Made by a program: the position numbers and the translations under genes
Origin: Hyphomicrobiales bacterium
GTDB taxonomy: Bacteria; Pseudomonadota; Alphaproteobacteria; Rhizobiales; JANPGK01
DNA length: 64,000 bases
Assembly (NCBI GenBank): GCA_031423895.1
Contig: JANPGK010000008.1
Span: 278-64,277 of the forward strand
Direction: 5' to 3'
Notes under the pieces: generated by a model
The model's input: only the letters and a program-made list of their open reading frames with translations
What the model was told of the DNA's origin: nothing
Database searches by the model: none
Part shown: positions 35,741 to 59,604 of the stretch, one piece after another
How the letters are laid out: every line of letters starts with the position of its first letter
How positions within the stretch are numbered: position 1 is the stretch's first letter

Positions 35741-36220
35741 TTAGGCCTGTGGGGTAGCACTATCCGTGCTAGAATTGGAGCGCTTAGAAAACAATCCTGA
35801 AACAGCGGCAACATATGCAAGTGCACCAAAACTGAGTAATTTCATGTATACTTTGGATGACAGAAAAATTTTTCCGATGTCTGTATAAAATGCTTTACGT
35901 TGTGGATTTGCGCCATCAATTGCACGTTTCCATTCTGCAGGGCTGTTTATGTCCCATATGCCTTGCAAAAATTTAGCATGCTCCGATTTATACATTGTAT
36001 GGCTTAAATTTATAGAAGTTTTTAAACTCAGTTTAAAATCGCCTATGTGCAAAGGGTCAATTTGATTAAGGGTATGGTGTGAGTGCTGTAAAATAGCATT
36101 TTCATTTACAATGGGTGTTTTATCAAAATCAACATATGAACACATTTGATTCACAAATTGTTTCATATAATTGAGGCCATCTGCTGCGGTATTAAATTTA
36201 ATAGTCATAATAATCACCAT
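35741..36220 (-). CDS. small C-terminally TM-anchored hypothetical protein, tandem paralogue 1
   Basis: 159 aa, AT-rich. It begins MVIIMTIKF and ends SKVYMKLLSFGALAYVAAVSGLFSKRSNSSTDSATPQA. Roughly 50 percent identical by eye to the 36413-36880 product. Confidence 0.55.
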   Translation of the reverse strand: MVIIMTIKFNTAADGLNYMKQFVNQMCSYVDFDKTPIVNENAILQHSHHTLNQIDPLHIGDFKLSLKTSINLSHTMYKSEHAKFLQGIWDINSPAEWKRAIDGANPQRKAFYTDIGKIFLSSKVYMKLLSFGALAYVAAVSGLFSKRSNSSTDSATPQA

Positions 36221-36370
36221 TTATTATTTACTTGAATAAGTATTGCTTCTATAATTTTCTATTGTAATAGTCAATATATTATTGGTAATTAGAGTGTTTC
36301 ATTTCCAATTTCCAATTGGGCAAATAATCCGTATGCGGGGGCTGCCCATTTTACACCCCTTAGCGCACAG

Positions 36371-36393
36371 AAAAACGGCCACAAACGCGGCCG
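36371..36393 (-). terminator. rho-independent terminator of the 36413-36880 gene
   Basis: The minus strand reads CGGCCGC-gtttgt-GGCCG TTTTT. It is homologous to the terminator at 35683-35705. Confidence 0.55.
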
Positions 36394-36412
36394 TATAAGA
36401 AATGATTATTTC

Positions 36413-36880
36413 TTAAGCCTGAGGTATGCGAGTTTCAGGTTGTTTTGAAAAAAGCCCTGAAACAGCGGCAACACATGCAAGCGCACCAATGCCTAGTAAT
36501 TTTAAATATACTTTGGACGACAAGAAAAACTTACCTATTTCAATTAAACTCGGTTTGTGTGATGCAGGCGCGGCTTCAATTGCTCGTTTCCAATCCGCTG
36601 GGCTATTGACATCCCAAACTTCTTTAAGATATTTAGCATTAAATTTTTTATTTACTTGTTTAGAAGCCTCCACGGAGGCTTTTAAATTGTTTTTGAATAG
36701 CACTAATTGATCAGAGTCAATTTCGTTAAGTGTATGTTTGGCATGCTGTAAAATTGCATCTTCGCTAACAATCGGATTTTTATTAAAGTTCACATAATCT
36801 TCCATTTGCATGATAAAATTTGTAACATACTGTATACCTTGTTCAGATGTAGTAAAACGTATAGCCATTATAATCACCAT
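36413..36880 (-). CDS. small C-terminally TM-anchored hypothetical protein, tandem paralogue 2
   Basis: 155 aa. It begins MVIIMAIRF and ends SKVYLKLLGIGALACVAAVSGLFSKQPETRIPQA. Confidence 0.55.
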   Translation of the reverse strand: MVIIMAIRFTTSEQGIQYVTNFIMQMEDYVNFNKNPIVSEDAILQHAKHTLNEIDSDQLVLFKNNLKASVEASKQVNKKFNAKYLKEVWDVNSPADWKRAIEAAPASHKPSLIEIGKFFLSSKVYLKLLGIGALACVAAVSGLFSKQPETRIPQA

Positions 36881-36976
36881 TATGTAAGTTAGATATTATT
36901 TTTTATAATATAAATATGCTAGCATTTTGTCAATAACATTTCTATACTTCAGGCTAAAATACATTATTGCAACCCC

Positions 36977-38374
36977 TCACCCCAACGTCTTCCTCCACCT
37001 CGCTGCCTGTGCGCGCACGTTCTTCGGGGCTGTGCCGCCGAAGCTGATGCGGCGCTTGATCGCGGCTTCGGCGGTGAGCACTTTGAACACATCGTTGGTG
37101 ATGGTGGGTTCGATGCTTTGCAATTGCGCGAGCGTTAATTTATGCAGTGGTTTTTTGGCATCTTCGGCCAGCTTCACCGCGCGGCCCGTGATGTGGTGCG
37201 CTTGGCGGAACGGAATGCCCAGCGCTTGCACCAGCCAATCGGCCAATTCAGTTGCGGTGGAATAGCCGCCACTTGCTGCCGCCTTCAGGGCAGGGGCGTT
37301 CACTTGAATATCGGCCACCATGCCTTCCATCACCGCAAGGCATAAGGAGAGCGTTTCTAGCGCGTCGAACGTGGCCTCTTTATCCTCTTGCATGTCCTTG
37401 GAATAGGCCAGCGGCAGGCCTTTCATCACCATGAGCAGCCCTTGGAAATGCCCCGCAATGCGGCCAATTTTGGCGCGCACTAATTCTGCGGCATCGGGGT
37501 TGCGCTTTTGCGGCATGATGGAGGAGCCGGTGGAGTATTTATCGGACAGGCTAATAAAATGAAACGGCGCGGAGCACCACACCACAATTTCCTCGGCAAA
37601 ACGGCTCAGATGCATTGCGGTGATGCTAGCGGCGGCCATGGCCTCGAGCGCAAAGTCGCGGTCGGATACGCTATCGAGCGAATTGGCGGTGGGGCGGGCA
37701 AAGCCTAGCTCCTTGGCCACAAAGTGCCGGTCAATCGGGAAGCTGGTGCCCGCCAGCGCGGCGCTGCCTAGCGGGCATTCGTTCATGCGATTGCGCGCAT
37801 CGACAAAGCGGGAATGGTCGCGCCCCAGCATTTCCACATAGGCCATAAAATGGTGCCCAAGCGTGACAGGCTGCGCGGTTTGCAAATGGGTGAAACCCGG
37901 CATCAGCGTGGCGGCATGCTCCTGCGCGCGCAGCACAAACGCCTGCTGCACCGCTTCGATCTGCTGCGCAATCGCATCCACCATATCGCGCACCCACAGG
38001 CGGAAGTCGGTCGCCACTTGGTCATTGCGCGAGCGCGCGGTGTGCAGGCGGCCAGCCGCTGGGCCGATCAACTCCGCAAGGCGGGATTCCACATTCATAT
38101 GGATGTCTTCCAGCGCGGTTTGGAAGGTGAACTGCCCGCTTTCAATCTCGCCCTGAATTTGCAGCAGCCCTTTGGTGATAGCGGCGCGATCTTCCTGTGA
38201 AATAATCCCCTGCTGCGCGAGCATAGCCGCATGCACGATGGAGGCGCGGATGTCTTGCGCATACATTTTTTTGTCAAAACCAATCGACGCGTTGATGGCC
38301 TCCATCATTTTATCACTTGCACTTTCAAAGCGGCCACCCCACATAGGGTTGGAAGGTGTTGATGTGTTACTCAT
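36977..38374 (-). CDS. argH: argininosuccinate lyase
   Basis: [38 protein letters not shown]... and [12 protein letters not shown]. The start was set at 38374; the longer track ORF to 39052 runs antisense through tlpA. Confidence 0.95.
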
Positions 38375-38393
38375 GCTGCGCTCCGAAGGATAG

Positions 38394-39008
38394 ATGATGA
38401 CCCGTAAAATTGGCTTTATATCTGCAATAATCGCATTGGCGTGTATAGCATTATTTTGGGGCACGCGCCCGCAGCCCGCGCCAATTGCTGCTGCGCCGCA
38501 GTGCCAAATGGTAGATCGGGCGCAGTTAAACGCGCTTGCAGTGGGCGAAATTGCGGGGCTGAAGGTGCTCGATGTGCCGCGCCTATTGCCTGCACTGGCA
38601 TTTGAAGATGCAACAGGGGCGCCCATTTCGCTCGCAAATTTTAAAGGCAAAGCGGTGCTCATGAACTTTTGGGCCACATGGTGCGCGCCCTGCCGTGAGG
38701 AAATGCCAGCGCTAGATGCATTGCAATCGACATTCAACCCGCAGCACGCGCAGGTGGTGGCCATCAGCATGGATGTGGGCGGAATTGACAAACCCAAAAA
38801 ATTTCTTGACGAAATTCGCGCCACGCGCCTCACCCTATATGCCGACCCAAAAGGCCAAATGATCAAGCAATTAAAGGCATTGGGACGCGGCACAGGGTTG
38901 CCCACCACGTTGCTGATCGACAAAAATGGCTGCGAACAGGGCTTTTTGCTCGGGGCAGCCAATTGGAATAATGAAAATATGCAGAAAATTATCAAATTAT
39001 TTGAATGA
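38394..39008 (+). CDS. tlpA: TlpA-family thiol:disulfide oxidoreductase (thioredoxin fold, membrane anchored)
   Basis: N-terminal TM segment and [23 protein letters not shown]. It is divergent from argH, as in many alphaproteobacteria. Confidence 0.8.
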
Positions 39009-39275
39009 GTTAACGCATTGGTTTTTAACAAGAATTTGCTATCCTGAATCACAACTTACGCGATTAATCGCAAAAAGTTATACACAGATGCGAAAATCGC
39101 CAAACTAGGGGGGTGACAGATCGAAAAACTGTATTACTCTAAACGTTAGCGCCAAAAGAGCGCATGATGTAGCACACCAGAATGCTATATACATAAATGG
39201 AAACATTCAATCGCCCGCTGGGGGCACTGACGTGCAGCAAAAATGCGCACGCAGTTTATAAAAAAGGAGGCAACG

Positions 39276-40946
39276 ATGGCCAAATCATCCGCTGCGGTTC
39301 CACACAAAGAAACATCTATGTGGAATGTCGTATTTGCATCATCACTTGGTACAGTTTTTGAATGGTACGATTTTTACCTGTATGGCTCACTTGCGGCCAT
39401 CATTGGGAAGCATTTCTTCTCAGGACTCACAGAATCGGGGCAGTTTCTCTTCGCACTCATTGCATTTGCGGCGGGCTTCTTCGTGCGGCCATTTGGTGCA
39501 TTGTTCTTCGGTCGTTTGGGCGACATGGTGGGCAGGAAACACACATTTCTTATCACAATTCTCATTATGGGGATGTCAACCTTTGTAGTGGGCATTTTGC
39601 CAACCTATGAAGCTATTGGGATTGCGGCACCAATTTTGCTCATACTCATGCGATTGCTGCAAGGCTTGGCATTGGGCGGCGAATATGGCGGCGCAGTTGT
39701 CTATGTGGCTGAACATTCCGAGCCTGATAAGCGCGGTCTTCGCACTAGCTGGATTCAAACCACAGCAACGCTTGGGTTGTTCCTCTCACTCATCGTGATT
39801 TTGCTGTGTCGCCAATATGCACCAGGGGTCACGCCGGCTGAAAAAGAGGCCGCGTTTTCATCTGCATGGGGGGGATGGCGCATTCCATTCTTGCTCTCCA
39901 TCTTCCTATTGGCAATTTCTGTGTGGATTCGTTTAAAACTCAATGAATCGCCCATGTATCAAAAAATGAAAAACGAGGGCACAACCTCTAAAGCGCCTTT
40001 AAGCGAAGCATTTGGGAATTGGAAAAACCTCAAAATTGTGTTGTTGGCATTGTTCGGTCTCACCGCAGGGCAAGCGGTTGTGTGGTACACAGGGCAATTC
40101 TACGCCTTGTTCTTCCTCACACAAACCTTGAAGGTTGAACCCTATTGGGCGAATATTATGATTGCCATTTCGCTTGCAATTGGCACACCATTCTTCATCT
40201 TCTTTGGGTGGCTGTCCGACAAAATTGGCCGTAAACCCATTATTATGGCCGGGTGTTTTATTGCTGCAGTGACATATTTCCCATTGTTCAGTGCGCTTTC
40301 AGATCATGCAAACCCTGAACTGGCAAAAGCAATTGCAACATCGCCTGTCACCGTGACAGCAAACCCAGCTGACTGCCGCTTGCAGTTCGACCCAGTGGGC
40401 AAAGCCAAGTTCACCACGCCGTGCGACGTTGCAAAGTCAACGCTTGTGAAGGCGGGTGTGCCCTATAAAAATGTTGCAGGGCCTGCTGGCGTTGCAACCA
40501 TTACATTTGGCACGGGCGCACCAATTGCATCGTACGATTCTGCTTTGCCAGACGCCAAGGAAAAAGGCGCGGCCTTCACCAAAGCCTTTGCAGAAGCCCG
40601 CACAAAAGCGGGTTATCCTGCGAAGTCGTCTCTTCAAGGCGTTAACTGGACAGTGGTTGGCATTCTCACAATTCTCGTGATTTATGTGACCATGGTGTAT
40701 GGCCCGATTGCGGCAATGCTGGTGGAATTGTTCCCAACACGCATTCGCTACACCTCTATGTCGTTGCCATACCATATTGGGAATGGTTGGTTTGGGGGCT
40801 TCTTGCCAACAACCGCCTTTGCCATTGTGGCGTCCACGGGCGACATCTACTCTGGCCTATGGTACCCAATTATTGTGGCCGTAATGACACTGGTAATTGG
40901 CATGCTCTTTATCAGAGAGAAAAACCATAGAGTTACGATTGATTAA
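39276..40946 (+). CDS. MFS transporter, metabolite:H+ symporter (MHS) family
   Basis: An AGGAGG RBS precedes MAKSS. Motifs are LGTVFEWYDFYLYGSLAAII and GRLGDMVGRKHTF. It has 12 or more TM segments with a long central soluble insert. Confidence 0.8.
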   Translation: MAKSSAAVPHKETSMWNVVFASSLGTVFEWYDFYLYGSLAAIIGKHFFSGLTESGQFLFALIAFAAGFFVRPFGALFFGRLGDMVGRKHTFLITILIMGMSTFVVGILPTYEAIGIAAPILLILMRLLQGLALGGEYGGAVVYVAEHSEPDKRGLRTSWIQTTATLGLFLSLIVILLCRQYAPGVTPAEKEAAFSSAWGGWRIPFLLSIFLLAISVWIRLKLNESPMYQKMKNEGTTSKAPLSEAFGNWKNLKIVLLALFGLTAGQAVVWYTGQFYALFFLTQTLKVEPYWANIMIAISLAIGTPFFIFFGWLSDKIGRKPIIMAGCFIAAVTYFPLFSALSDHANPELAKAIATSPVTVTANPADCRLQFDPVGKAKFTTPCDVAKSTLVKAGVPYKNVAGPAGVATITFGTGAPIASYDSALPDAKEKGAAFTKAFAEARTKAGYPAKSSLQGVNWTVVGILTILVIYVTMVYGPIAAMLVELFPTRIRYTSMSLPYHIGNGWFGGFLPTTAFAIVASTGDIYSGLWYPIIVAVMTLVIGMLFIREKNHRVTID

Positions 40947-40969
40947 TCTCGTCGTATAAAAACTAACAG

Positions 40970-40994
40970 GGGGCGCTGTAATGGCGCCCCTTTT
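40970..40994 (+). terminator. rho-independent terminator after the MFS gene
   Basis: GGGGCGC-tgtaatg-GCGCCCC TTTT. Confidence 0.7.
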
Positions 40995-41044
40995 GTGTTG
41001 AAGTTTTTATAAATTCAGTTGAATATGCGAAGGCGCTCTTTTTG

Positions 41045-41164
41045 CTCCCCCCTTGCGGGGAAGCTGTCGAGCCGATCCTATATTGGCGAGACTGAGGGCG
41101 GTAATCTTTTGATGACCGATAGAAAGAAAACCCCTCCCCCTACCCCCTCCCGCAAGGGGAGGGG
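41045..41164. repeat. hairpin-terminated MITE/REP-like element, family A copy 2 (intergenic)
   Basis: Aligns along its whole length with 18982-19102: GCTCCCCCCTTGCGGGG.AGCTGTCGAGCC.ATCC...GAGACTGAGGG...AGAAAGAAAACCCCTCCCCCTACCCCCTCCCGCAAGGGGAGGGGA. Confidence 0.85.
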
Positions 41165-41213
41165 AAAGTAAGATTCTACCCTTGCGGGTAAATTATCTGA
41201 TTGGATTCCCCCT

Positions 41214-43184
<1,971 letters not shown>

Positions 43185-43194
43185 CGGATTGAAA

Positions 43195-43611
43195 TTATTT
43201 AGCGATTCTTGCTAAGCCTTCATAAAAATCATATTTTGATTCATGCTTTTCAGCATGATCTAAATAAAATTGTGGGGATAATGGCGTGTGTTTATAATTG
43301 CCTTTATCGGCTTTAGCGCGCTCTGCCATTGTAAGATCAAATGCAACATTTTTATCGGCTGTATCCATTTTCTTGGCAGCATATGCGGCCAGTTCTACCG
43401 TAGTTACAACGCCGTCCCCTTTTTTCAAAAAGCCAGGTTTATCAGCGCTCTTTAATATAGACTTCATTTGTTTGAATTGTGCATCAGACAAAGTGCCTGA
43501 TAAATCCCCATCTAAATTATCAAAGTAACGTGAAACACGACTTTGAAAGTCATTGCCGTCAGTATTGTAAGTTTTAGAGAGTGTGCTTAATGTAATAGGG
43601 TCGTTACTCAT
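43195..43611 (-). CDS. hypothetical protein, AT-rich orphan with two weak EF-hand-like loops
   Basis: 138 aa. DNLDGDLSGTLSDAQF and KKGDGVVTTVELAAY resemble, but do not fully match, EF-hand Ca-binding loops. Confidence 0.4.
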   Translation of the reverse strand: MSNDPITLSTLSKTYNTDGNDFQSRVSRYFDNLDGDLSGTLSDAQFKQMKSILKSADKPGFLKKGDGVVTTVELAAYAAKKMDTADKNVAFDLTMAERAKADKGNYKHTPLSPQFYLDHAEKHESKYDFYEGLARIAK

Positions 43612-43815
43612 AATTATACTCCATAATATAAAGGCACTGCGTATAATCAGTGTTGCACGGTGTATTTATAGCTGTCAATTGAGCAGACACCATAGATTTC
43701 CATTGCATATGTCGTGATAAAATTTTTTAACCACATGATATTAAACATTATTTTTTTATAATAGATAAAATTTAATATTGCATATTGAGTATAGATCCTA
43801 TGCACCGTGCACTCT

Positions 43816-46680: not shown

Positions 46681-47082
46681 ATGATCGGCTTTGTAATCAT
46701 CACCCATGGCGATTTGGCGCGCGAATTTCGCAGCGCGCTCGAGCATATTGTTGGCCGCCAGCAGCATTGTGAAACTGTGTGCATTGCAGCAGATGATGAT
46801 ATGGACATGCGCCGCAATGATGTTGCCCAAGCCATCGTGCGTGTAGATTGTGGTAAAGGCGTGATTTTGCTCACCGATATGTTCGGCGGCACCCCCTCTA
46901 ATATTGCCATTCACTTCCTCGATGTTGGCAAAATTGAGGTGATTGCGGGCGTGAACCTGCCATTATTGGTTAAATTAGCGCAAATTCGCAAAACGCACAC
47001 CTTGGCCAACGCCGTGGTGGAGGCGCAAAATGTGGGGCGCAAATATATCCGCGCCGCCAGCGAAGTGCTTGCTGGAAAATAA
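46681..47082 (+). CDS. PTS EIIA component, mannose/fructose type (regulatory PTS of alphaproteobacteria)
   Basis: MIGFVIITHGDLAREFRSALEHIVG...ILLTDMFGGTPSNIAI, 133 aa. Confidence 0.85.
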   Translation: MIGFVIITHGDLAREFRSALEHIVGRQQHCETVCIAADDDMDMRRNDVAQAIVRVDCGKGVILLTDMFGGTPSNIAIHFLDVGKIEVIAGVNLPLLVKLAQIRKTHTLANAVVEAQNVGRKYIRAASEVLAGK

Positions 47083-47163: not shown

Positions 47164-47673
47164 ATGATCAACCCCACCAAATCAGAGCCGTATCGTTATT
47201 GTTATTGGGGAGATGTCGCACAAAATGCCGATGGCACAATCTCTGAAGAGGGCACAATATTTGATGGTATTAAGGATTTGATCGTGATTGAACCCGCGAC
47301 GGGAAAAATTTATGTTCAAAAAGGGTCTCAAAAACCAGGTGGGAAAATTGACGATATTAATATTGATCCTACGATTGCCTATGAAACCACGTTTGACAAT
47401 ATTGAATATAAAATGCTGCTCGGTAAAACAAGTTTTTACAGTATGATCGATTGGGATGGTGATCAAAAAATGGATTATTGTACATATATGCCAGAAGAGC
47501 ATTTGTTTTTAACGAAATTATCGGATGCCAATTCTAAATTACCTAAGATTTATGAATTTGAGAACGAAGGTGACTCTAAAGAATTAAATGTGAATGATGA
47601 TGCTGAATGGGATATTGTGTTTCGGCGCGGCACAAGTTTATTAACGCTTATAAAGCATTATCATACGCAATAA
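47164..47673 (+). CDS. hypothetical protein, AT-rich orphan inserted between the EIIA(Man) and HPr genes
   Basis: 169 aa with RBS CAGGAGGATAAAATG. No recognised domain and no TM segment. Its stop is 20 nt before the HPr start. Confidence 0.5.
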   Translation: MINPTKSEPYRYCYWGDVAQNADGTISEEGTIFDGIKDLIVIEPATGKIYVQKGSQKPGGKIDDINIDPTIAYETTFDNIEYKMLLGKTSFYSMIDWDGDQKMDYCTYMPEEHLFLTKLSDANSKLPKIYEFENEGDSKELNVNDDAEWDIVFRRGTSLLTLIKHYHTQ

Positions 47674-47693
47674 GTGACAGAAAGCACCAGTTA

Positions 47694-47987
47694 ATGGCCG
47701 AAATTCCTGTAGATGCGCTCACCACAACGCTCCATATTAAAAATGAGCGGGGGCTGCACGCCCGCGCCTCGGCCAAATTTGTGCGCTGTGTGGAGCAGTT
47801 CCCTGAAGCAATAGTGTATGTCACCCGCGCGGGCGAAACCGTTGGTGGCCGCTCTATCATGGGGTTGATGTTGCTGGCCGCAGGCGTTGGCACTACCATT
47901 GAGGTGGCCACCCATGGCGAACAAGCGCAAGAAGCGCTCGAGGCCATCACTGCACTGGTGGATGATTTGTTTGGTGAGGGGGAGTGA
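47694..47987 (+). CDS. ptsH: HPr-family phosphocarrier protein
   Basis: LHIKNERGLHARASAKFV (active-site His) and GGRSIMGLMLLAAGVGT (Ser46 region). 97 aa after moving the start to MAEIP. Confidence 0.9.
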   Translation: MAEIPVDALTTTLHIKNERGLHARASAKFVRCVEQFPEAIVYVTRAGETVGGRSIMGLMLLAAGVGTTIEVATHGEQAQEALEAITALVDDLFGEGE

Positions 47988-48108: not shown

Positions 48109-48540
48109 CTACGACACCTTGCCTACATCAGTAGATTTGTTAAACAGGCTGATACCCGCTAGCCCCACCACCAACAGGCTGACAGTTTTGATCAAGCCAG
48201 CACCTTTGCGCATAGCTTGAAAAAAGGCATTGGGAAGTTTTCTAAATAATTGCGCGGCTTCATTAGTGGGGTTGTTTTCTTTTATAGTCTCAGCCATCAA
48301 AATGGAAGTACTTTTCTCTGCATCGTTCATAATACCAAGAAATATAACCGTGTCCGAGCCCATAGCTGTGACTAGAGGTTTAATGTTTTTACCTTCATCA
48401 AGGCCTTTGCTCTTCATGTGGCTCAGCGCCGCAACTGGATTCTCAGAGTTTTCATTGAAATGAAGCACCCCCATATCAAAAAAATGCTGCATAAAATCAT
48501 TATACATTTTGCTTGTAGCAGCCTTAATTAAATCAGACAT
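48109..48540 (-). CDS. small C-terminally TM-anchored hypothetical protein (singleton)
   Basis: 143 aa, AT-rich. It ends GLIKTVSLLVVGLAGISLFNKSTDVGKVS, the same architecture as the 35741/36413 and 58601/59134 products. Confidence 0.5.
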   Translation of the reverse strand: MSDLIKAATSKMYNDFMQHFFDMGVLHFNENSENPVAALSHMKSKGLDEGKNIKPLVTAMGSDTVIFLGIMNDAEKSTSILMAETIKENNPTNEAAQLFRKLPNAFFQAMRKGAGLIKTVSLLVVGLAGISLFNKSTDVGKVS

Positions 48541-48611
48541 TGTTACAACTCCTAAATAATTGACTAAGTACCCGTAATCATATAAGTTCTGTTCGACGGA
48601 GTCAATAAAAA

Positions 48612-49202: not shown

Positions 49203-49209
49203 GACTCAC

Positions 49210-49327: not shown

Positions 49328-49346
49328 TAAGCATCAAGGAACTCAC

Positions 49347-51111: not shown

Positions 51112-51158
51112 AGGTAATAACTTTTATTGACGTCGTTCCAAACATGTGGTAGGTTGGC

Positions 51159-51449
51159 ATGGATGTTGAGTTTGACCCAAGTAAGGACGAAGCCAATATC
51201 ACCAAGCATGGCGTGAGTTTAGCGGCAGCAAAATTGTTTGATTGGTCCACGGCTATGATTGTGCTTGACCAACGGGTTGATTATGGTGAGGCACGTTTTA
51301 GCGCAATCGGCATGATCGGCAAACGTGAGTATGTTGTCATTTTTACTTATCGGGTGGAGAAAATTCGCGCAATATCTGTGCGAAAGGCCAATGAAAAAGA
51401 GAGAAGACGCTATGAGCAAAATTTATCGCGGCACCGTCGAGGAAGATAA
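51159..51449 (+). CDS. brnT: BrnT-family (DUF497) type II toxin
   Basis: VEFDPSKDEANITKHGVSLAAAKLF...EARFSAIGMIGKREYVVIFTYRVEKIRAISVRKANEKERRRY. Confidence 0.8.
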   Translation: MDVEFDPSKDEANITKHGVSLAAAKLFDWSTAMIVLDQRVDYGEARFSAIGMIGKREYVVIFTYRVEKIRAISVRKANEKERRRYEQNLSRHRRGR

Positions 51450-51693
51450 TATTGAAGAGCTGCCAGAAGAATTTTTTAAAAATGCCGTCTATGGCTGGGA
51501 TGGCCTCGCCTCATTGATCGGTGCCGATGTCGTGGCGGAGATGCGCAAGGCGGGGCGGCCGAAAGTGGCGGCACCTAAGCAATTGCAAAGTTTCAAACTC
51601 TCACAAGACGTGATTTCTGCCATCAAGCAATCAGGCAAAGGCTATAATGCGCGTGTTGAAAAAGTACTCCGCGCGGCATTTTTGGGAGAGTGA
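51412..51693 (+). CDS. brnA: BrnA-family antitoxin
   Basis: The start overlaps the brnT 3' end. GRPKVAAPKQLQSFKLSQDVISAIKQSGKGYNARVEKVLRAAFL matches the BrnA C-terminal ribbon-helix-helix pattern. Confidence 0.7.
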   Translation: MSKIYRGTVEEDNIEELPEEFFKNAVYGWDGLASLIGADVVAEMRKAGRPKVAAPKQLQSFKLSQDVISAIKQSGKGYNARVEKVLRAAFLGE

Positions 51694-51753
51694 TTGCGCA
51701 CTTTACTCTTAGAAAACGTGAAGGCGCAAGCAGAATAACCCGCGCCCCCCAGT

Positions 51754-52851
51754 TTACCCTGCTTTTGGGTAGTCGGTATAACCCTTCTGCGCCCCGCCAT
51801 AAAAAGTAGCGCGGTTATAGGGGGCAAGCGCAATGCCCGCTTGAATGCGCTGCGCCAAATCTGGGTTTGAAATATAGTATCGCCCAAACACAACTGCATC
51901 CGCTGTGCCTGTTTCCACCGCTGTTTTTGCTAGCTCTGGCGTGTAACCACCTGCCGACAAAAACACACCTTTAAAGTGTGCGCGGAACAATTCCGAGGTA
52001 CTGGGGGCGTCTTGGGCAACAGCATCATTTCCGCCTGCGCTTGTGGCGCGCGGTTCTATCATATGCACATAGGCAATGCCGCGCGCGCTGAGCTGTTCGA
52101 GCACATAGGTAAACAGCGCATTTGGGTTTTCATCCGCCATGTCGTTAAACGTGCCATAAGGCGAAAGACGCACGCCCACGCGGTCCTTGCCCCACACAGA
52201 AATTGTGGCATCCACCACTTCGAGCAACAGGCGAGCGCGGTTTTCGATTGACCCACCATAGGAATCAGTGCGGGTGTTGGCGCTGGTTTGTAGGAACTGG
52301 TCGAGCAAATAGCCATTCGCGCCATGCACTTCTACGCCATCGAAGCCGGCATCCTTCGCGCATTGTGCACCGTGCTTAAAGTCCGCAATAATGCCAGGAA
52401 TTTCAGAAAGCTCCAGCGCATGCGGCGTTTCATAAGGCGCTTGCTGCCAATCGGCCGTGAACACCATGCCAGAAGGCTTGATGGCGGAAGGCGCAACGGG
52501 CAATGCGCCGCCAATTTGGTGCGAGCTGTGCGAAATCCGCCCCACATGCCACAGCTGCGCAAAAATTTTGCTGCCCTGTTCTTGCACGGCCTTCGTGATT
52601 AATTTCCAGCCTTCCACTTGTTGCGGCGTGTGAATGCCAGGCGTGCCGGGGTAGCCTTGCCCTTGCTGCGAAACTTGCGTGGCCTCCGTGATGATCAACC
52701 CTGCGCCCGCGCGCTGCGCATAATATTCCGCATTCAGTGCATAGGGCACATTGCCCGGCTGCTGGGCGCGCATGCGGGTGAGCGGCGCCATAATAATGCG
52801 GTTTTTAAGGGTATTCGCGCCCATAATGAGCGGTTCAAATAAATCTGTCAT
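51754..52851 (-). CDS. Old Yellow Enzyme family NADH:flavin oxidoreductase (alkene / N-ethylmaleimide reductase type)
   Basis: LKNRIIMAPLTRMRA...AGLIITEATQVS..GQGYPGTPGIH...QLWHVGR...VEVHGANGYLLDQFL. Confidence 0.9.
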   Translation of the reverse strand: MTDLFEPLIMGANTLKNRIIMAPLTRMRAQQPGNVPYALNAEYYAQRAGAGLIITEATQVSQQGQGYPGTPGIHTPQQVEGWKLITKAVQEQGSKIFAQLWHVGRISHSSHQIGGALPVAPSAIKPSGMVFTADWQQAPYETPHALELSEIPGIIADFKHGAQCAKDAGFDGVEVHGANGYLLDQFLQTSANTRTDSYGGSIENRARLLLEVVDATISVWGKDRVGVRLSPYGTFNDMADENPNALFTYVLEQLSARGIAYVHMIEPRATSAGGNDAVAQDAPSTSELFRAHFKGVFLSAGGYTPELAKTAVETGTADAVVFGRYYISNPDLAQRIQAGIALAPYNRATFYGGAQKGYTDYPKAG

Positions 52852-52865
52852 AGGTGCCTCAATGC

Positions 52866-53366
52866 TTAAATGCTGCCCAAAAAGTCTTTTTTGCCCACAT
52901 CCACACCATTATGGCGCAAAATGGAATAGGCTATTGTGCTGTGAAAATACACATTTGGCAGCACAAAGCCTTGCGCATATTGCAGGCCGGTGAAGTTCAT
53001 TTCCTGCCCGCCCACTTTCAAGTGAATTTCGGCAGCTTCTTTGCCATCAATTTGCGCGGGCGTGAGCGTTTTCAAAAACGCAATGGTTTTGGCAATGCGG
53101 GCTTTGAGTTCATCAAATGTGGCTTCATCATCTGTAAAACTGGGGTTTTCAATACCCGCAAGCCGCGCACCGCCGCCCTTGGCAATATCGCAGGCAATTT
53201 GCACTTGGCGCGCCAGTGCGAACATGTCGGGCGCAAGCCGCGCGTTGATCAAAATGCTGGGGTCGATCTTCTTTTCAACCGCAAAGGCTGCGCCTTTGTC
53301 TAAAATGGCGGAAAGATTGTTCAAAGCGCGGATGGTGGCGGGGAGGGTGTGGTGGTAGAGCGACAT
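52866..53366 (-). CDS. DUF1993 domain protein
   Basis: MSLYHHTLPATIRALNNLSAILDKG...ARLAPDMFALARQVQIACD...NVYFHSTIAYSILRHNGVDVGKKDFLG. The start was moved to 53366. Confidence 0.75.
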   Translation of the reverse strand: MSLYHHTLPATIRALNNLSAILDKGAAFAVEKKIDPSILINARLAPDMFALARQVQIACDIAKGGGARLAGIENPSFTDDEATFDELKARIAKTIAFLKTLTPAQIDGKEAAEIHLKVGGQEMNFTGLQYAQGFVLPNVYFHSTIAYSILRHNGVDVGKKDFLGSI

Positions 53367-53421
53367 CAGGAGTCCTATGGTGAGCGTGAGCCCTTCATAT
53401 GGGAAGCCCCCCAGTGCATTA

Positions 53422-54843
53422 CTAGCCCCCACCTTCCAAAATCTTCTTTAACTGCTCCAGCCCTTCAATCCGCTCAATCGCCTCATGCTTGCCCTGCGCT
53501 AGGAACGCATCGAGCATGGGGTTGAAGTGGATGGCTTCATCCACCTGCGCATTAGAGCCTGCGCGATACGCGCCCAGTTTGATCAACTCTTCCATGTCGC
53601 CATATTGCGCCATCAGGTTTTTGGCGCGTTGAATGACAGGGCGATATTCCATCTCCACGCAATTGGGCATGGTGCGCGAGATGGATTTGAGCACGTTCAC
53701 AGCGGGGTAGCGGCCTTGCTCGGCAATGCGGCGCTCCATCACAATGTGGCCGTCGAGAATGCCGCGCACGGCGTCTGCCACGGGTTCGTTATGGTCGTCT
53801 CCATCCACCAACACCGTGAATAGCCCTGTGATGCTGCCCGAGCCAACCTCGCCGGGGCCGGCGCGCTCCAGCAATTTGGGCAATTCGGCAAACACGGTGG
53901 GGGTGTAGCCCTTGGTGGTGGGGGGTTCGCCCGCCGAAAGGCCAATTTCGCGCTGCGCCATGGCAAAACGCGTGACAGAATCCATCATGCACAGCACTTG
54001 CAGGCCTTGATCACGGAAATATTCGGCAATGGTGAAGGTGAGATAGGCGGCTTGGCGGCGCATCAGCGCGGGCTCATCCGAGGTGGCCACCACCACCACC
54101 GATTTGCGCATGCCTTCCGCGCCCAAATCATCCTCTAAAAATTCCTGCACCTCGCGGCCGCGCTCGCCAATCAATCCAATAACGGCCACATCGCAGGCGG
54201 CATTGCGCGCCATCATCGACATCAACACCGATTTCCCCACGCCAGAGCCCGCAAAAATGCCCAAGCGCTGGCCTTGGCAGCAGGTCACAAATGTGTTGAG
54301 CACCCGCACACCCAAGTCGAGCACGCCGCCCACACGAGCGCGTTTATGGGCTGCAGGGGGCGTGCCACGCACCAATTGTGAATGTGCGCCTTTGAGCAGC
54401 GCGCCTTTACCATCGACAGGTTCGGCCAAGCCATTCACCACCCGCCCCAGCCATGCATGGCACGGCTGCACGCTGGCCTCATGCTGCAAAAGAATAGCGC
54501 GGCACCCCATGCGCACGCCATCGAGCGCGCCAAAGGGCATGGCCAGCGCCCGCTCGCCCTGAAACCCCACAATTTCGGCATGAATATAGCGCCCTGGCGC
54601 GGTTTCAATCTCCACGCGGCTGCCCACACCCATCACATGGGTTGGCCCCATAATTTCAATGAGCAAGCCCTGCACGCCAATCACGCGGCCATACATGGTG
54701 ACACTATCAAGCTGCTCAATCTCGTTGCGCAGGCCGCTCAGGCTGTCTTTTAACTTTTGGTAGGGAATATCGGGCATGGAGGAATCATCCGCTGGTGCGT
54801 TTATCCTACGCCTTGATAGGCGAGAATTCAACACGCTGTGCAT
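53422..54843 (-). CDS. fliI: flagellum-specific (type III secretion) ATPase FliI
   Basis: Walker A is [17 protein letters not shown]. ...[30 protein letters not shown]...[14 protein letters not shown]. The start is uncertain (54843 or the ATG at 54777). Confidence 0.9.
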
Positions 54844-55011
54844 AACCCATGTTGCACTGCATAAAACTATGAGTCTGTTGAATCACTTAGCGTAAATGTT
54901 TAAAGTAATTTATATCCGTTAACAAAGCCAAATTCATGTTATATATAAATTATTTAGGGTAAAAAATCAGAAAAAAATGAATTAACACTTGCGGCGCAGA
55001 ATCATCTTTTG

Positions 55012-55019
55012 TTAACCAT
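55012..55019 (+). promoter_or_regulatory. TTAACCAT CtrA-type 8-mer in the fliI-ctrA divergent intergenic region
   Basis: An exact match to the TTAACCAT motif described for Caulobacter CtrA-regulated promoters, about 90 nt upstream of the ctrA ATG. No canonical TTAA-N7-TTAA was found. Confidence 0.35.
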
Positions 55020-55107
55020 TTAAGGGTAGCGTTAAGAATCAGTGAAGCGTGCATGTGATGCAAGCAAACACACAGATATGAAACGATTTTTTTTGGGGAG
55101 GACGCAC

Positions 55108-55803
55108 ATGCGTGTGCTTTTAATTGAAGACGACAGCGCAGTAGCGCAAAGCATCGAACTGATGCTAAAATCAGAAGGATTTAACGTCTATGCCACCGAT
55201 TTGGGCGAAGAAGGGGTGGATCTTGGCAAATTATATGATTACGACATCATATTGCTTGATCTGAACTTGCCCGACATGTCTGGTTACGAAGTTCTGCGCA
55301 CATTACGTGTTTCCAAAGTGCGCACGCCAATCCTCATTCTCTCAGGTATGGCGGGCATTGAAGATAAAGTGCGTGGCCTTGGCTTCGGCGCCGATGATTA
55401 CCTCACCAAACCATTCCACAAGGACGAGCTGGTGGCCCGCATTCACGCCATTGTGCGCCGTTCAAAAGGCCATGCACAATCGGTGATCAACACGGGTGAT
55501 CTCACCGTGAACCTTGATACAAAAACCGTGGAAGTGGCCGCCCAGCGCGTGCACCTCACCGGCAAAGAATATCAAATGCTTGAGTTGCTTTCCTTGCGCA
55601 AGGGCACCACACTCACCAAAGAAATGTTCCTCAACCACCTGTATGGCGGCATGGACGAACCAGAACTCAAAATCATCGACGTGTTTATTTGCAAACTTCG
55701 CAAAAAACTTGCGGGTTCAACTGGCAAAAACTACATTGAAACCGTGTGGGGCCGTGGCTATGTGCTGCGCGACCCAGATGAAGCCGATTTTGCTGCGGCT
55801 TGA
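55108..55803 (+). CDS. ctrA: cell-cycle response regulator CtrA (OmpR family)
   Basis: [36 protein letters not shown]...[22 protein letters not shown]...[23 protein letters not shown]...[12 protein letters not shown]...[25 protein letters not shown] precedes the start. Confidence 0.95.
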
Positions 55804-55827
55804 ATGTAATACACCTTCCCCAATTGC

Positions 55828-55852
55828 AAAACCCGCCCATGTGGCGGGTTTT
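55828..55852 (+). terminator. rho-independent terminator of ctrA
   Basis: AAAACCCGCC-catgt-GGCGGGTTTT. Confidence 0.8.
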
Positions 55853-56271
55853 GTGTGTGCAGCGTCAATGCGAGGAAATCCTTTATTGACGAAGCAATCT
55901 AGCTCTTAAGATTCTGGTTTACCGCGCTGTGTTCCACCCCATCGCAATGACACCCGCAGATCGTCATATGATATATGTTTAAAAGTTTTGCGCCCCCTTA
56001 TCCATTGAAATTCCACATGAAATACAAATTTATCCCCCACGCTTCAGGGTAGTGTATTCTATAGCCTAGGGTTAAAATCATGGCGCCTGTGCTGGTTACG
56101 ATTGGTATATGCGCGGTGGTGAGTATCCCTTAGCTCTTTGATAGGTGAATCTGTAGATTAAAACTATGCCCTCCAGCGTGGCATGGGTTGAGCCTGTTTG
56201 TGTGCATCAAACCAGCGCTCGCCCATGATGCACCCGCGCTGTGGGGGGATTTTTTGTACGCAAAAACAGGT

Positions 56272-56360
56272 GTCATTCTGAACGCGCGTAAGCGCAGTGA
56301 AGAATCTCCTTGAGGTTGAGCACAATTGGCGGGAGATCCTTCGCCTTCGCTCAGGATGAC
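56272..56360. repeat. GTCAT...ATGAC palindromic REP/MITE-like element, family C copy 1
   Basis: GTCATTCTGAACGCGCGTAAGCGCAGTGAAGAATCTCCTTGAGG...GGGAGATCCTTCGCCTTCGCTCAGGATGAC. Homologous to 58437-58523 and, inverted, to 60574-60653. Confidence 0.85.
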
Positions 56361-56382
56361 ATTGCGTTAAATATAGTTTACA

Positions 56383-56414
56383 AAAAAACGCCCACGCAAA
56401 TGCGCAGGCGTTTT
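56383..56414 (-). terminator. candidate terminator downstream of rpsP
   Basis: The minus strand reads AAAACGCCTGCGCATTTGCGTGGGCGTTTTTTT. Confidence 0.5.
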
Positions 56415-56436
56415 AAATTGAATCAATAACTAACTG

Positions 56437-56799
56437 TTACTCAGCAGCGGCTTCCGCTGGAGCGGCTTCAGCTTCAGCATTTGCTGCGGCGCGTTCAAGC
56501 GATTTTTTGCCCGGCAATGCGGCTTCAGGGTTGTTGCGTGGGGCGCGTTTGGCAAGGCCAGCAGCATCTAAAAAGCGCAAAACGCGGTCGGTCGGTTGTG
56601 CACCAACGCTTAGCCAATGTTGGATCCGGTCTGTGACCAATGTCACACGGTTTGCAGCATCACGCGCCAGCATTGGGTTATAGGTGCCTACTTTTTCAAT
56701 AAACGCACCATCACGCGGGTTGCGGGCATCTGTCACCACAATACGGTAATACGGGCGTTTTTTAGCACCACCACGCGCCAAACGAATTTTCAAAGCCAT
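56437..56799 (-). CDS. rpsP: 30S ribosomal protein S16
   Basis: [42 protein letters not shown]..., with an Ala/Glu-rich C-terminal tail. Confidence 0.95.
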
Positions 56800-56840
56800 A
56801 GTTTTGTCCTTAACTGAATCTGTGAATTGGCTCTATAACC

Positions 56841-58409
56841 CTATTTTTTACCCTTTGGCAAGCCCTGATTTGCACCAAAAGGAAACCCAGGCAATTTATT
56901 GTTGGCATTGGGGGCGCCAAGCCCTGGCAAGCCGCCCAAACCTGGCATGCCAGCACCGCCTTTGGGCATCGATTTCATGAGCTCTTGCATTTGGTCGGGG
57001 CTTGGTAATCCTTGGGGCATGCCTTTTGGCATTTGGGGCATCCCGCCACCGCCCATACCGAACATGCCGCCCAATTTGCTGGCAAGACCTCCGCCCATAC
57101 CGCCCATACCTTTGCCGCCCATCATTTTCATCATATCGGCCATTTGGCGGTGCATTTTTAGTACCTTGTTGATCTCTTCTAGCGATGTGCCAGAACCCGC
57201 CGCAATACGCTTTTTGCGGCTGAAATTCAGCAGATCAGGCTTGGCACGCTCTTTGGGGGTCATGGACTGAATCACGGCCAGCTGGCGCTTGAGGGTATTG
57301 TCATTAATATTGGCCGTTTTCATGGCGTCTTTCATTTTGCCCATGCCCGGCAACATGCCCATCACACCACCGAGGCCGCCCATGGCCTGCATTTGCTGCA
57401 ATTGGGTGGCCATATCAGCAAGGTCGAAATTGCCTTTGGCCATGCGCTGCGCCATTTTTTGCGCGGCTTCTGCATCAATGGTTTGCGATGCTTTTTCCAC
57501 CAGCGCCACAATGTCGCCCATGCCGAGGATTCGGTCGGCCATGCGCTGTGGGGTGAAGGCCTCAATTGCATCTAATTTTTCGCCAGTACCCAAAAATTTA
57601 ATGGGTTTGCCTGTGATCGCGCGCACTGAAAGCGCCGCGCCGCCGCGGCCATCGCCATCAATCCGTGTGAGAATTGCGCCTGTAATATTCACCGCTTCGT
57701 CGAACGCGCGTGCCGAAACCACCGCATCCTGCCCCGTGAGGGCGTCGGCGACAAACAACACATCGGCGGGGTTGGCAAAGGCACGAATGTCTTTCAACTC
57801 CTGCACCAGCGCTTCATCCACATGGGTGCGGCCGGCGGTATCGAGAAACACAACATCATAGCCGCCCAATTTGGCCTCGCTCATGGCGCGGCGGGCAATT
57901 TCAATGGGCTGTTGGCCAGCGATGATCGGCAATGTATCAATGCCCGCTTGCGTGCCCAAAATGGCCAGCTGCTCCTGTGCGGCGGGGCGGCGAGTGTCGA
58001 GCGATGCCAGCAGCACTTTCTTTTTCTCGCGGGTTTTTAGCCACAATGCCAGCTTGCCAGTGGATGTGGTTTTGCCCGAGCCTTGCAAGCCCACCATCAT
58101 AATCAGCGCGGGGGCGGGCACGTTCAAGTTCAGCGTGGCGCCATCGGTACCCAGCAATTCCACCATAGCGTCGTGCACAATTTTGATGACCTGCTGCCCC
58201 GGTGAAACGGACTTGATAACCTGCTGCCCCACAGCAGCGGTGCGCACGGTTTCCACAAATTGCTTCACCACCTCCAGCGCCACATCGGCCTCGAGCAAAG
58301 CGCGGCGTACTTCACGCAAGGCGGTGTCCACATCCTCCTGCCGCAGCGCCCCGCGTTTGGTGAGCGTGGCAAAAATATCGGTGAGGCGGGTGGAGAGTTG
58401 GTCGAACAT
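56841..58409 (-). CDS. ffh: signal recognition particle protein Ffh
   Basis: MFDQLSTRLTDIFATLTKRGALRQEDVDTALREVRRALLEADV, GLQGSGKTTSTGKLA, DTAGR and a Met/Gly-rich M domain. Confidence 0.97.
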   Translation of the reverse strand: MFDQLSTRLTDIFATLTKRGALRQEDVDTALREVRRALLEADVALEVVKQFVETVRTAAVGQQVIKSVSPGQQVIKIVHDAMVELLGTDGATLNLNVPAPALIMMVGLQGSGKTTSTGKLALWLKTREKKKVLLASLDTRRPAAQEQLAILGTQAGIDTLPIIAGQQPIEIARRAMSEAKLGGYDVVFLDTAGRTHVDEALVQELKDIRAFANPADVLFVADALTGQDAVVSARAFDEAVNITGAILTRIDGDGRGGAALSVRAITGKPIKFLGTGEKLDAIEAFTPQRMADRILGMGDIVALVEKASQTIDAEAAQKMAQRMAKGNFDLADMATQLQQMQAMGGLGGVMGMLPGMGKMKDAMKTANINDNTLKRQLAVIQSMTPKERAKPDLLNFSRKKRIAAGSGTSLEEINKVLKMHRQMADMMKMMGGKGMGGMGGGLASKLGGMFGMGGGGMPQMPKGMPQGLPSPDQMQELMKSMPKGGAGMPGLGGLPGLGAPNANNKLPGFPFGANQGLPKGKK

Positions 58410-58436
58410 GGGGTGTACCTATTGAATTTGGATGCT

Positions 58437-58523
58437 GTCATTCTGAGTAAGCGCAGCGCAGTGCAGGATCTCCTTAAATGTGAGCTCAATCTGTAGGAGA
58501 TCCTTCGCGACGCTCAGGATGAC
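58437..58523. repeat. family C element copy 2, immediately upstream of ffh
   Basis: GTCATTCTGAGTAAGCGCAGCGCAGTGCAGGATCTCCTTAAATG...GGAGATCCTTCGCGACGCTCAGGATGAC. Confidence 0.85.
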
Positions 58524-58600
58524 AACCACCCATAGCGCGAAATGCAGGCATGGGGAAGAGGGTTGTAAGCTGTATAGATTTATGGTAAAGGAGGCGAATA

Positions 58601-59122
58601 ATGCAATTTGTTTTAATTAAGGATGATACAATGAAAGCTGATGATTTGGCCGTTACTATTAAAACAGAGTTTTTTAAAAGCTTTGTGAGAAAAAATCCCT
58701 ATGATGCGTTTATTTCGCAAGCTGCAGACGGTAAATTTAAACTTGATCAGCAAGGCGCTGCTGAGTTTATGCGTATACCATCCATAAAAGATTACTTTTA
58801 CGAGGCGGGCATGCGCGTGGGTGCTGCAAAATCTCAGCTGAGGGTTCAGTATAAACAATCTTCTAATTTATCAGGGGAAGTTTGGCAAAAAAGCGCTGCG
58901 ATTGTGGATACTATCAGCACCCAAGCTGCGATTGTGGAGTCTAAAGGACCAACTGCTCCTATTTATAAATATATTTCGGGACTTTCATTTGCTATCTGGA
59001 AGCAGGGTTTTATTTTAGGGACTACACAATTTATGGCGCTTGTGTTGGGTGTTGGCTTGGGCTTTAAGATCATACAAAATGGTGCTTCATCATTATTAGC
59101 TGATGCAAAAGAGAAGGTATAA
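58601..59122 (+). CDS. small C-terminally TM-anchored hypothetical protein, pair member 1
   Basis: 173 aa, AT-rich, preceded by an AAGGAGG RBS. It ends FAIWKQGFILGTTQFMALVLGVGLGFKIIQNGASSLLADAKEKV. Confidence 0.5.
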   Translation: MQFVLIKDDTMKADDLAVTIKTEFFKSFVRKNPYDAFISQAADGKFKLDQQGAAEFMRIPSIKDYFYEAGMRVGAAKSQLRVQYKQSSNLSGEVWQKSAAIVDTISTQAAIVESKGPTAPIYKYISGLSFAIWKQGFILGTTQFMALVLGVGLGFKIIQNGASSLLADAKEKV

Positions 59123-59133
59123 AAGGGATATTC

Positions 59134-59604
59134 ATGGCGATTGAACACGATTTATCTGCAGCGAAATCTAGTTTTTTGAGATATTGGAATAATGTACACC
59201 CCGTAGAGGGTTTCTATAAAGATGTTAAAAATGGAGAACAAGAGTTAACGGTTCTCAATATGAGTGAATATATGAAGAAGTATCAAACTCGTTATGAAAA
59301 AAACGGGTTTGACTGCGGAAAGTTCTATAAAAAATATGCTAAAGTGAGCCCTCGCTTTGTTGCGGATCTGCAATTTTTAATGGATCAAACAGCCGCTGCC
59401 AGTGCTGTCACACATGTTAAAATGGGTTTGAGTGAAACTCCAAAGGCTGTACAGCAATTGGCCTTTAATACTGCTTTTACATATTGGAAGGCAGGTTTTC
59501 AAAAAGGTATGCTCAGTGCCTCCATCGCTCTTGCAGGGCTTGGGCTCACTTTTTTGGCCACGCAATGGGGCAAAGGCGCGGCGCAAAAGCAGGATCGAGC
59601 ATAG
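59134..59604 (+). CDS. small C-terminally TM-anchored hypothetical protein, pair member 2
   Basis: 156 aa. It ends FTYWKAGFQKGMLSASIALAGLGLTFLATQWGKGAAQKQDRA and shares the xWKxGFxxG-TM pattern with the preceding gene. Confidence 0.5.
   Translation: MAIEHDLSAAKSSFLRYWNNVHPVEGFYKDVKNGEQELTVLNMSEYMKKYQTRYEKNGFDCGKFYKKYAKVSPRFVADLQFLMDQTAAASAVTHVKMGLSETPKAVQQLAFNTAFTYWKAGFQKGMLSASIALAGLGLTFLATQWGKGAAQKQDRA

Follow-up and report, generated by a model that had tools for sequence, protein, structure and literature searches.

Tail-anchored proteins are estimated to make up less than 1% of bacterial proteomes, and in Streptomyces coelicolor a set of 73 candidates was cut to 20 (PMC3087755). In E. 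coli, tail-anchored proteins with moderately hydrophobic transmembrane domains (TMDs) reach the membrane without SecYEG and partly without the signal recognition particle (PMC6794478), and a preprint on one small tail-anchored protein, YqjD, states that its function requires dimerisation (bioRxiv 10.1101/2024.08.16.608256). Moderately hydrophobic transmembrane (TM) segments also characterise secreted TMD-effectors (PMC6110835; PMC12981334), and eukaryotic organelle membranes are described as targetable by bacterial tail anchors (PMC5525287). Here we describe five small genes lying between positions 35,741 and 59,604 of a 64,000-nucleotide stretch of a Hyphomicrobiales genome (GCA_031423895.1, contig JANPGK010000008.1, forward-strand positions 278 to 64,277), referred to below as the window. 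Our preferred reading, to which we give an even chance, is that these are lineage-restricted genes for probable C-tail-anchored (type IV) inner-membrane proteins, which form three orphan families in AT-rich islets.

Five AT-rich genes with one C-terminal hydrophobic segment

A first-pass annotation of the window, made from the letters and their translations, had picked out five AT-rich open reading frames (ORFs) of 143-173 amino acids (aa) lodged between groEL/argH, ptsH/hisB and ffh/dapF. In this it was correct: the ORFs lie where it put them, the helices it quoted occur verbatim in the translations, and Pfam identifies the neighbours as Cpn10/Cpn60 (groES/groEL) and Lyase_1+ASL_C2 (argH), as EIIA-Man/PTS-HPr and IGPD (hisB), and as SRP54 (ffh, in ffh-rpsP) and DAP_epimerase (dapF, in dapF-mtaB). 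We call the genes A1 and A2 at the groEL/argH locus, B at the HPr/hisB locus, and C1 and C2 at the ffh/dapF locus. Their GC contents (A1 0.36, A2 0.35, B 0.41, C1 0.39, C2 0.42) are lower than those of the window (0.495) and of its housekeeping genes (0.50-0.59). In a GC scan at 300 nt, about ten AT-rich islets that carry genes, each roughly 0.5-1.5 kb long, are dispersed over the window; the five ORFs occupy three of them.

A1 (35741..36220, minus strand) encodes 159 aa, with a helical N-terminal domain, a TM candidate at residues 128-145 (LLSFGALAYVAAVSGLFS; 35786..35839, minus strand) and a 14-aa tail ending in PQA; an automatic gene call on a Logan contig, assembled from the Sequence Read Archive, starts it at 36208, giving 155 aa. 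Its tandem paralogue A2 (36413..36880, minus strand; alternative start at 36868) encodes 155 aa, with a TM candidate at residues 128-145 (LLGIGALACVAAVSGLFS; 36446..36499, minus strand) and a 10-aa tail that also ends in PQA. A gap of 97 bp separates argH from A2, which lies downstream of it; A1 comes next, and the two genes are convergent with groEL. B (48109..48540, minus strand) is a singleton of 143 aa, with a TM candidate at about residues 115-133 (GLIKTVSLLVVGLAGISLF; 48142..48198, minus strand) and a 10-aa tail; hisB, 71 bp away, is transcribed divergently from it, and HPr convergently. C1 (58601..59122, plus strand; 173 aa; TM candidate at about residues 137-155, FILGTTQFMALVLGVGLGF, 59009..59065, plus strand; 18-aa tail) and its diverged tandem paralogue C2 (59134..59604, plus strand; 156 aa; TM candidate at residues 125-143, GMLSASIALAGLGLTFLAT, 59506..59562, plus strand; 13-aa tail) lie between ffh and dapF in the orientation of dapF, C2 starting 11 nt past the end of C1.

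Each protein has a single Kyte-Doolittle (KD) 19-mer segment of at least 1.6 (A1 1.62, A2 2.03, B 1.99, C1 1.77, C2 1.64), which ends 10-18 residues before the stop. None carries an N-terminal hydrophobic segment: the best N-terminal 19-mer reaches at most 0.85 in A1, A2, C1 and C2, and the second-best segment of B, at 1.36, is internal. On a heuristic test, all five therefore show the two features of the tail-anchored class, no hydrophobic segment at the N-terminus and one within 30 residues of the C-terminus. Summed crudely and without regard to position, the biological hydrophobicity scale assigns the five segments +1.6 to +3.4 kcal/mol per 19-mer, compared with +3.9 to +14.7 for soluble window proteins and about -1.7 for the helices of two polytopic transporters; since these sums are intermediate between the soluble and polytopic controls, the segments rank as marginal-to-moderate TM candidates. 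AlphaFold2 (AF2) models are all-helical, with seven helices in A1 (predicted local distance difference test, pLDDT, 47) and six in C1 (pLDDT 65, predicted TM-score, pTM, 0.60), where the last helix runs unbroken through the hydrophobic segment from residue 119 to residue 172. The shared design first proposed for these proteins, a helical N-terminal domain, then a single hydrophobic helix near the C-terminus with a few polar residues after it, and no signal peptide, is thus what we recover.

All five are genes, B being the least supported. An open frame of 143-173 codons at about 38% GC has a chance of roughly 0.93^150, or about 3e-5 per frame start (arithmetic from composition), and independent gene calls are found on Logan contigs. 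A1 and A2 share about 54% identity (53-54%); their dS of 1.33 is close to saturation, and the ratio of nonsynonymous to synonymous substitution rates (dN/dS) is 0.27. With 21% identity, C1 and C2 form a collinear alignment of 145 residues (phmmer E = 2e-5; shuffle z = 6.2 in the tails, 2.9 in the N-domains) and have in common the motif F..WK.GF..G...G.GL.F..Q.G. Strong Shine-Dalgarno sequences stand upstream of B (AGGAG) and C1 (AAGGAGG, 6 nt upstream). Sigma-70-like promoters, called from consensus matches only, precede A2 in the gap after argH (36905..36933, minus strand; TTGACA-17-TATTAT, 11/12 matches) and B in the gap shared with hisB (48577..48605, minus strand; TTGACT-17-TATGAT, 10/12 matches); no CtrA box (TTAA-N7-TTAA) was found upstream of the five genes. 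The 3' flank of A1 (35638..35718, minus strand) holds an intrinsic-terminator hairpin (35687-35706) with a T-run and is one copy of a duplicated 81-nt unit; the other copy, the 3' flank of A2 (36326..36406, minus strand; an almost unchanged hairpin at 36375-36394 with a T-run), is 83% identical to it, indicating that gene and terminator were duplicated together. No terminator-like site was found between C2 and dapF, so that C1 and C2 are probably co-transcribed with dapF-mtaB.

By sequence the five proteins make up three unrelated orphan families: the tandem paralogues A1/A2, the singleton B and the tandem paralogues C1/C2. An all-against-all phmmer comparison, which included the other AT-rich ORFs, links A1 with A2 and C1 with C2 only, cross-locus E values exceeding 0.3. 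Cross-locus hhalign probabilities are 0.1-0.4%, with only the low-complexity helix aligned, and Smith-Waterman shuffle tests between loci stay at noise level (N-domains z of at most 0.9, tails z of at most 3.0). The first-pass annotation had pointed to a resemblance between the tail motifs GLFSK and SLFNK; as a sign of homology it finds no statistical support in these three tests, and the caution with which that annotation treated homology among the loci was well placed. Its treatment of the five as one set stands for the shared architecture and falls for the idea of a single family. The common architecture thus reflects convergence, or an ancestry too old to be detected.

Searches against Pfam, NCBIfam, PADLOC and PHROGs at E up to 1 returned noise only for the five proteins (the best PADLOC match had E 0.011 and 12 bits; PHROGs E at least 0.096), so that none matches a known family in these libraries. 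A word-indexed search of 5.8 billion proteins retrieved the queries alone for A2, B and a C1+C2 profile, a search that has false negatives, the A2 query having missed A1. Full HMMER against 1.84 billion cluster representatives, run with the C1+C2 profile only, returned C1, C2 and four long repeat proteins, which we judged artefacts, their scores being built from many weak repeats. There was likewise no match to the five in a PDB sequence search, in tblastn against 72,556 plasmids and 50,697 phage records or against 2 Mb of alphaproteobacterial loci, or in IMG/VR scans, and none to the A profile in a scan of JGI metagenomes. Lineage-specific membrane proteins of no assigned role, the more cautious of the original suggestions, is accordingly the description that the libraries searched leave in place.

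This orphan status has to be weighed against the distance of the host, since small, fast-evolving proteins would be unrecognisable at such phylogenetic distance. The HisB, S16, HPr and phasin of the host are each singleton 90%-identity clusters among 15 billion proteins; among the matches listed, the best to its Ffh is 67% identical in a scan of 185,579 GTDB species genomes and the best to its DapF is 53% identical in JGI metagenomes. The host lineage is itself an unsampled, deep-branching alphaproteobacterium, whose sequence is on record in a single NCBI contig (129,872 bp) and a single SRA run (SRR20217181).

The tail-anchor-like architecture is locally enriched. By a criterion of a single KD segment of at least 1.6 that ends within 30 aa of the C-terminus and starts after residue 60, applied to greedy ORF calls, it occurs in 5/60 window ORFs as against 16/1513 (1.06%) in 1.4 Mb of other alphaproteobacterial loci, an approximately eightfold difference in which both the calling of control ORFs and the TM criterion are crude (binomial P = 4e-4). 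As two of the three families are tandem pairs, the enrichment is weakened to three independent events, and P becomes 0.024 when each pair is counted once. The original impression that five such genes among about 60 are striking thus survives as an enrichment and loses much of its force once families are counted: the enrichment is real, modest after paralogy, and concerns AT-rich accessory genes, which have no proper baseline. If the topology is confirmed, about 8% of the genes here would be tail-anchored, in a class that normally makes up less than 1% of bacterial proteomes and has few characterised members.

The tail region is the best-conserved part of both paralogue pairs. Over the best-conserved run of 30 residues, which takes in the helix and its juxtamembrane stretch, A1 and A2 are 83% identical (53% overall), and C1 and C2 are 37% identical (18% overall). 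Glycine and alanine make up 0.20-0.39 of the helices and 0.10-0.18 of the rest of the proteins, with AxxxA/AxxxG or GxGxG patterns, and the helix-coding DNA is GC-richer than the rest of each gene, opposing the AT mutational bias. From this conservation, and from a Gly/Ala-richness that runs against the AT bias, we infer that the helix does more than anchor; the tail as the best-conserved part points to a function residing in the membrane helix.

We propose that each protein would consist of an all-helical cytoplasmic domain of about 115-135 residues, mildly basic or neutral, followed by an amphipathic juxtamembrane stretch with many aromatic and basic residues and by one moderately hydrophobic helix rich in small residues (Gly/Ala/Ser). 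This helix would insert post-translationally, by a route presumed to be that of the E. coli tail-anchored proteins with moderately hydrophobic TMDs (PMC6794478), leaving a periplasmic tail of 10-18 polar residues. This topology, N-terminus in and short tail out, is what the absence of a signal peptide implies; the flanking charges do not strongly confirm it. The helix would pack with other helices, through self-association or binding of a membrane partner, and selection would act on packing and not on hydrophobicity alone. Encoded in three AT-rich islets of about 0.5-1.4 kb amid the GC-richer housekeeping genes of a flagellate alphaproteobacterium, the proteins would serve accessory functions in the bacterium's own membrane, possibly tied to inter-bacterial or phage conflict. 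That last possibility is raised because toxin/immunity, PDC-S14 and Mrr genes occupy other AT-rich islets of the window; these neighbouring islets are the sole hint of a conflict-related accessory role, and a weak one.

Several observations weigh against the tail-anchor reading. A1 (KD 1.62) and C2 (1.64) sit at the threshold, the biological-scale sums are positive, so that membrane insertion is not assured, and the flanking charges, read from the sequences, have no clear positive-inside asymmetry. AF2 confidence is low to moderate, and Foldseek comparison of the models with PDB and BFVD gave nothing better than E = 0.4 and a TM-score of 0.35. With three independent families the enrichment P is only about 0.02, B has no comparative support, and there is no orthologue of any of the five with which to test conservation. 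As for the conflict role, it rests only on what neighbouring islets contain, none of the five matching PADLOC.

Some further features were seen around the three loci. A perfect 14-nt inverted repeat, TGTTATTGACAAAA, surrounds locus A, with copies within 35531-35622 and at 36925-36938. As the ends of a transposon it was rejected: both copies contain a TTGACA -35 box and are read as promoter elements. About 45 nt on from its plus-strand copy lies a strong hairpin with a T-run (35588-35622), and this succession of TTGACA and terminator-like hairpin makes a short unannotated transcript downstream of groEL possible; Rfam gave no match on locus A. The argH ORF (36977-39052, minus strand, 691 aa) is over-extended, its Lyase_1 domain beginning at residue 240, and its upstream part overlaps a real thioredoxin-fold gene (38394-39008, plus strand; AhpC-TSA/Redoxin, TlpA-like). 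Near B, an orphan gene of 169 aa (47164-47673, plus strand; GC 0.36) with a strong ribosome-binding site and no TM segment is wedged between EIIA-Man (46681-47082) and HPr (47694-47987), which stand about 0.6 kb apart. The ffh/C1 intergenic region holds an imperfect palindrome resembling repetitive extragenic palindromic sequences (58455-58514; AGCGCAGTGCAGGATCTCCT ... AGGAGATCCTTCGCGACGCT), present in the window as one copy only.

Alternative explanations

The five could be orphan immunity or anti-phage factors: membrane-anchored proteins, gained one at a time in AT-rich islets, that would counteract membrane-acting toxins or set off abortive infection. The company of other islets suggests as much: a toxin C-terminus stands there together with a SUKH-1 immunity-like gene, and a PDC-S14 gene (E 2e-92) and an Mrr nuclease are found as well. 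The genes themselves are small, fast-evolving orphans, tandemly duplicated and, as this explanation would have it, transcribed alone, and their conserved TM helix suggests interaction with a membrane partner. We nevertheless consider such a role rather unlikely. It is guilt by association only: there is no PADLOC or PHROGs match, no toxin gene adjoins any of the three loci, and the islets sit singly between housekeeping genes and not in a defence island or toxin array.

It is also possible that the C-terminal helices do not span a membrane, but are buried in soluble proteins or serve their oligomerisation, or else bind the membrane peripherally. Their hydrophobicity is marginal (KD 1.62-2.03, positive biological-scale sums), the uncharged stretches of A and B are only 15-18 residues long, the soluble window proteins GroEL and Acs also attain KD values of 1.5-1.8, and the AF2 model of C1 shows one long helix along which confidence falls. 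We find this unlikely, given that in all five the sole segment occupies the same position, with basic residues before it and a short polar tail after it, a pattern seen in only about 1% of control ORFs, and that every soluble control has a biological-scale sum well above theirs. The helices also conserve small-xxx-small and GxGxG patterns, which packed TM helices typically show.

Descent of all five from one ancestral tail-anchored gene, diverged past sequence recognition and spread to three loci, would account for the size, architecture and composition that they have in common and for helix ends that are loosely alike ([GS]L.F.K). C1 and C2 show how far such divergence can go, being already down to 21% identity inside one locus, and a weak similarity joins the tails of B and C2 (z = 3.0). 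That value is not significant over the eight comparisons made, however, and with hhalign below 1% for all cross-locus pairs, covering only the low-complexity helix, and N-domains at z of at most 0.9, we hold a single origin to be quite unlikely.

The three families might have converged on their conserved small-residue tail anchor because it is a shared functional module, either a recognition element for a lineage-specific route of membrane insertion or export or a signal for targeting host membranes. We think this very unlikely; were it true, effector or immunity proteins with a tail anchor, encoded in AT-rich islets of an unsampled alphaproteobacterial lineage, would form a new class.

The first-pass annotation had also raised the idea that the five are translocated effectors, which the data do not support and which we regard as highly improbable. 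In its favour, the scattered orphan genes are rich in AT, their products have helices of moderate hydrophobicity, as in secreted TMD-effectors (PMC6110835; PMC12981334), and bacterial tail anchors are described as able to target eukaryotic organelle membranes (PMC5525287). Against this, the 64-kb window holds no gene of a type III secretion system (T3SS) injectisome, a type IV secretion system (T4SS) or a type VI secretion system; its FliI/YscN-type ATPase belongs to FliI clade 3 (NCBIfam, above the curated cutoff), not to SctN, and adjoins CtrA. No host-directed secretion gene was found in the window, whose export machinery consists of the TpsA/TpsB pair and this flagellar FliI only. The five have no Pfam or NCBIfam family match, no eukaryote-like domain and no PDB sequence match, their C-terminal tails carry no obvious charge-based signal as read from the sequences, and C1/C2 are probably in the dapF operon, with no terminator between. 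The gene content, moreover, looks free-living (glyoxylate shunt, amino-acid biosynthesis, phasin, cyclic di-GMP enzymes). A role in the bacterium's own membrane is favoured over host targeting.

That the ORFs are spurious, mere AT-rich non-coding DNA, is barely credible: homologues were found nowhere and B lacks comparative support, but frames of 143-173 codons are improbable at about 38% GC, A1/A2 are under purifying selection, C1/C2 keep protein-level motifs, and ribosome-binding sites, promoters and terminators are present.

Tail-anchored proteins of the bacterium's own membrane thus stay our preferred reading. Its practical value is limited for now, the main result being a clean negative: the five belong to no known family, do not make up a single family and have no demonstrable effector role. 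The locus is a possible small test case for the gain of a membrane anchor by newly acquired or newly born genes.

Other features of the window

Among the remaining genes of the window are malate synthase, acetyl-CoA synthetase, his/arg/dap biosynthesis genes, GGDEF/EAL genes, phasin and CtrA, and by this content the organism looks free-living or facultative and metabolically complete. CtrA, FliI clade 3, an Ala/Glu-tailed S16, phasin and the EIIA-Man/HPr pair together identify it as a flagellate alphaproteobacterium. The FliI clade 3 flagellar export ATPase (53422-54843, minus strand) is divergent from CtrA (55042-55803), and downstream of it, in the region 52866-55803, lies a 188-aa ORF with no family match.

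At the left edge, an ORF that runs off the window (10-1422) ends in a DUF6883 domain and is followed by a 92-aa ORF (1419-1697; GC 0.29) and a SUKH-1/SMI1_KNR4 immunity-like gene (1703-2161; GC 0.26). The region 10-2161 resembles part of a polymorphic toxin locus, namely its toxin tip with the immunity genes. Next comes a two-partner secretion (TPS) pair, TpsA (3374-5722; TPS/filamentous-haemagglutinin N-domain) and TpsB (5719-6969; ShlB/POTRA type). Because a separate 132-aa ORF (7009-7407) corresponds to the end of the ShlB profile, a frameshift may have divided tpsB in two.

At 14208-15029 (minus strand; GC 0.36), between an ABC-F ATPase and RNase PH, a lone gene is assigned by PADLOC to PDC-S14, a family of candidate defence genes (E 2e-92), and also matches GIY-YIG weakly; 62512-63516 (plus strand; GC 0.39), adjoining the phasin gene (61998-62426), encodes an Mrr-type restriction endonuclease (Mrr_cat, E 1e-25). 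Further non-TM orphans occur at 12732-13298, 16842-17900 and 43195-43611. The 3' end of a tRNA-Arg(ACG) gene (32466-32542, minus strand) and the sequence downstream of it are directly repeated 81 nt away, as 54-nt copies at 32358-32411 and 32439-32492 that are 93% identical, and beside the tRNA lies a low-GC gene for a 572-aa PAS-domain protein with two TM segments (30569-32287). An element may once have integrated in the region 30569-32542 and left this arrangement as its scar.

Comparison with known systems

The TMD-effectors of T3SS and T4SS (Krampen et al. 2018; Legionella) resemble the five proteins in their moderately hydrophobic TM segments, their lineage-specific sequences and their scattered AT-rich genes. 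The five differ in that no cognate secretion system, secretion signal or chaperone is seen in the 64-kb window, and in the free-living look of the organism.

A parallel to how the loci are organised comes from Neisseria, whose minimal mobile elements are variable genes swapped between conserved flanking housekeeping genes. Our islets are likewise small, of foreign composition and set between housekeeping genes, and neither integrase nor transposase nor flanking direct repeats were found at them, just as the Neisseria elements are without integrase, transposase or terminal repeats. Those elements are defined by strain-to-strain polymorphism; here the likeness is one of locus organisation in one genome, not of protein function. 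The divergent ffh<->dapF-mtaB arrangement recurs in many alphaproteobacteria, with a gap of 254 bp to 4.9 kb that has unrelated genes inside, and no tail-anchored analogue was found in the ffh/dapF gap of other alphaproteobacteria.

Among proteins, the ribosome-hibernating, C-tail-anchored YqjD/ElaB/YgaM (DUF883) are similarly small, helical in their N-terminal part and anchored by a TM segment at the C-terminus. Membership in this one widespread proteobacterial tail-anchored family is ruled out, the DUF883 profile matching none of the five (Pfam hmmscan, E up to 1); the five are also 40-70 residues longer and orphan, whereas DUF883 is conserved across proteobacteria.

The described bacterial C-tail-anchored proteins, such as DjlC and Flk of E. 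coli and the tail-anchored membrane proteins (TAMPs) of Streptomyces (Craney et al. 2011), share with the five the lack of a signal peptide, a hydrophobic segment within 30 residues of the C-terminus, a predicted cytoplasmic N-terminal domain and a moderately hydrophobic TMD. The five differ from them in having no sequence relationship to them, in that their insertion is predicted, and in their setting, where several unrelated examples of the same architecture stand within 24 kb, in AT-rich islets.

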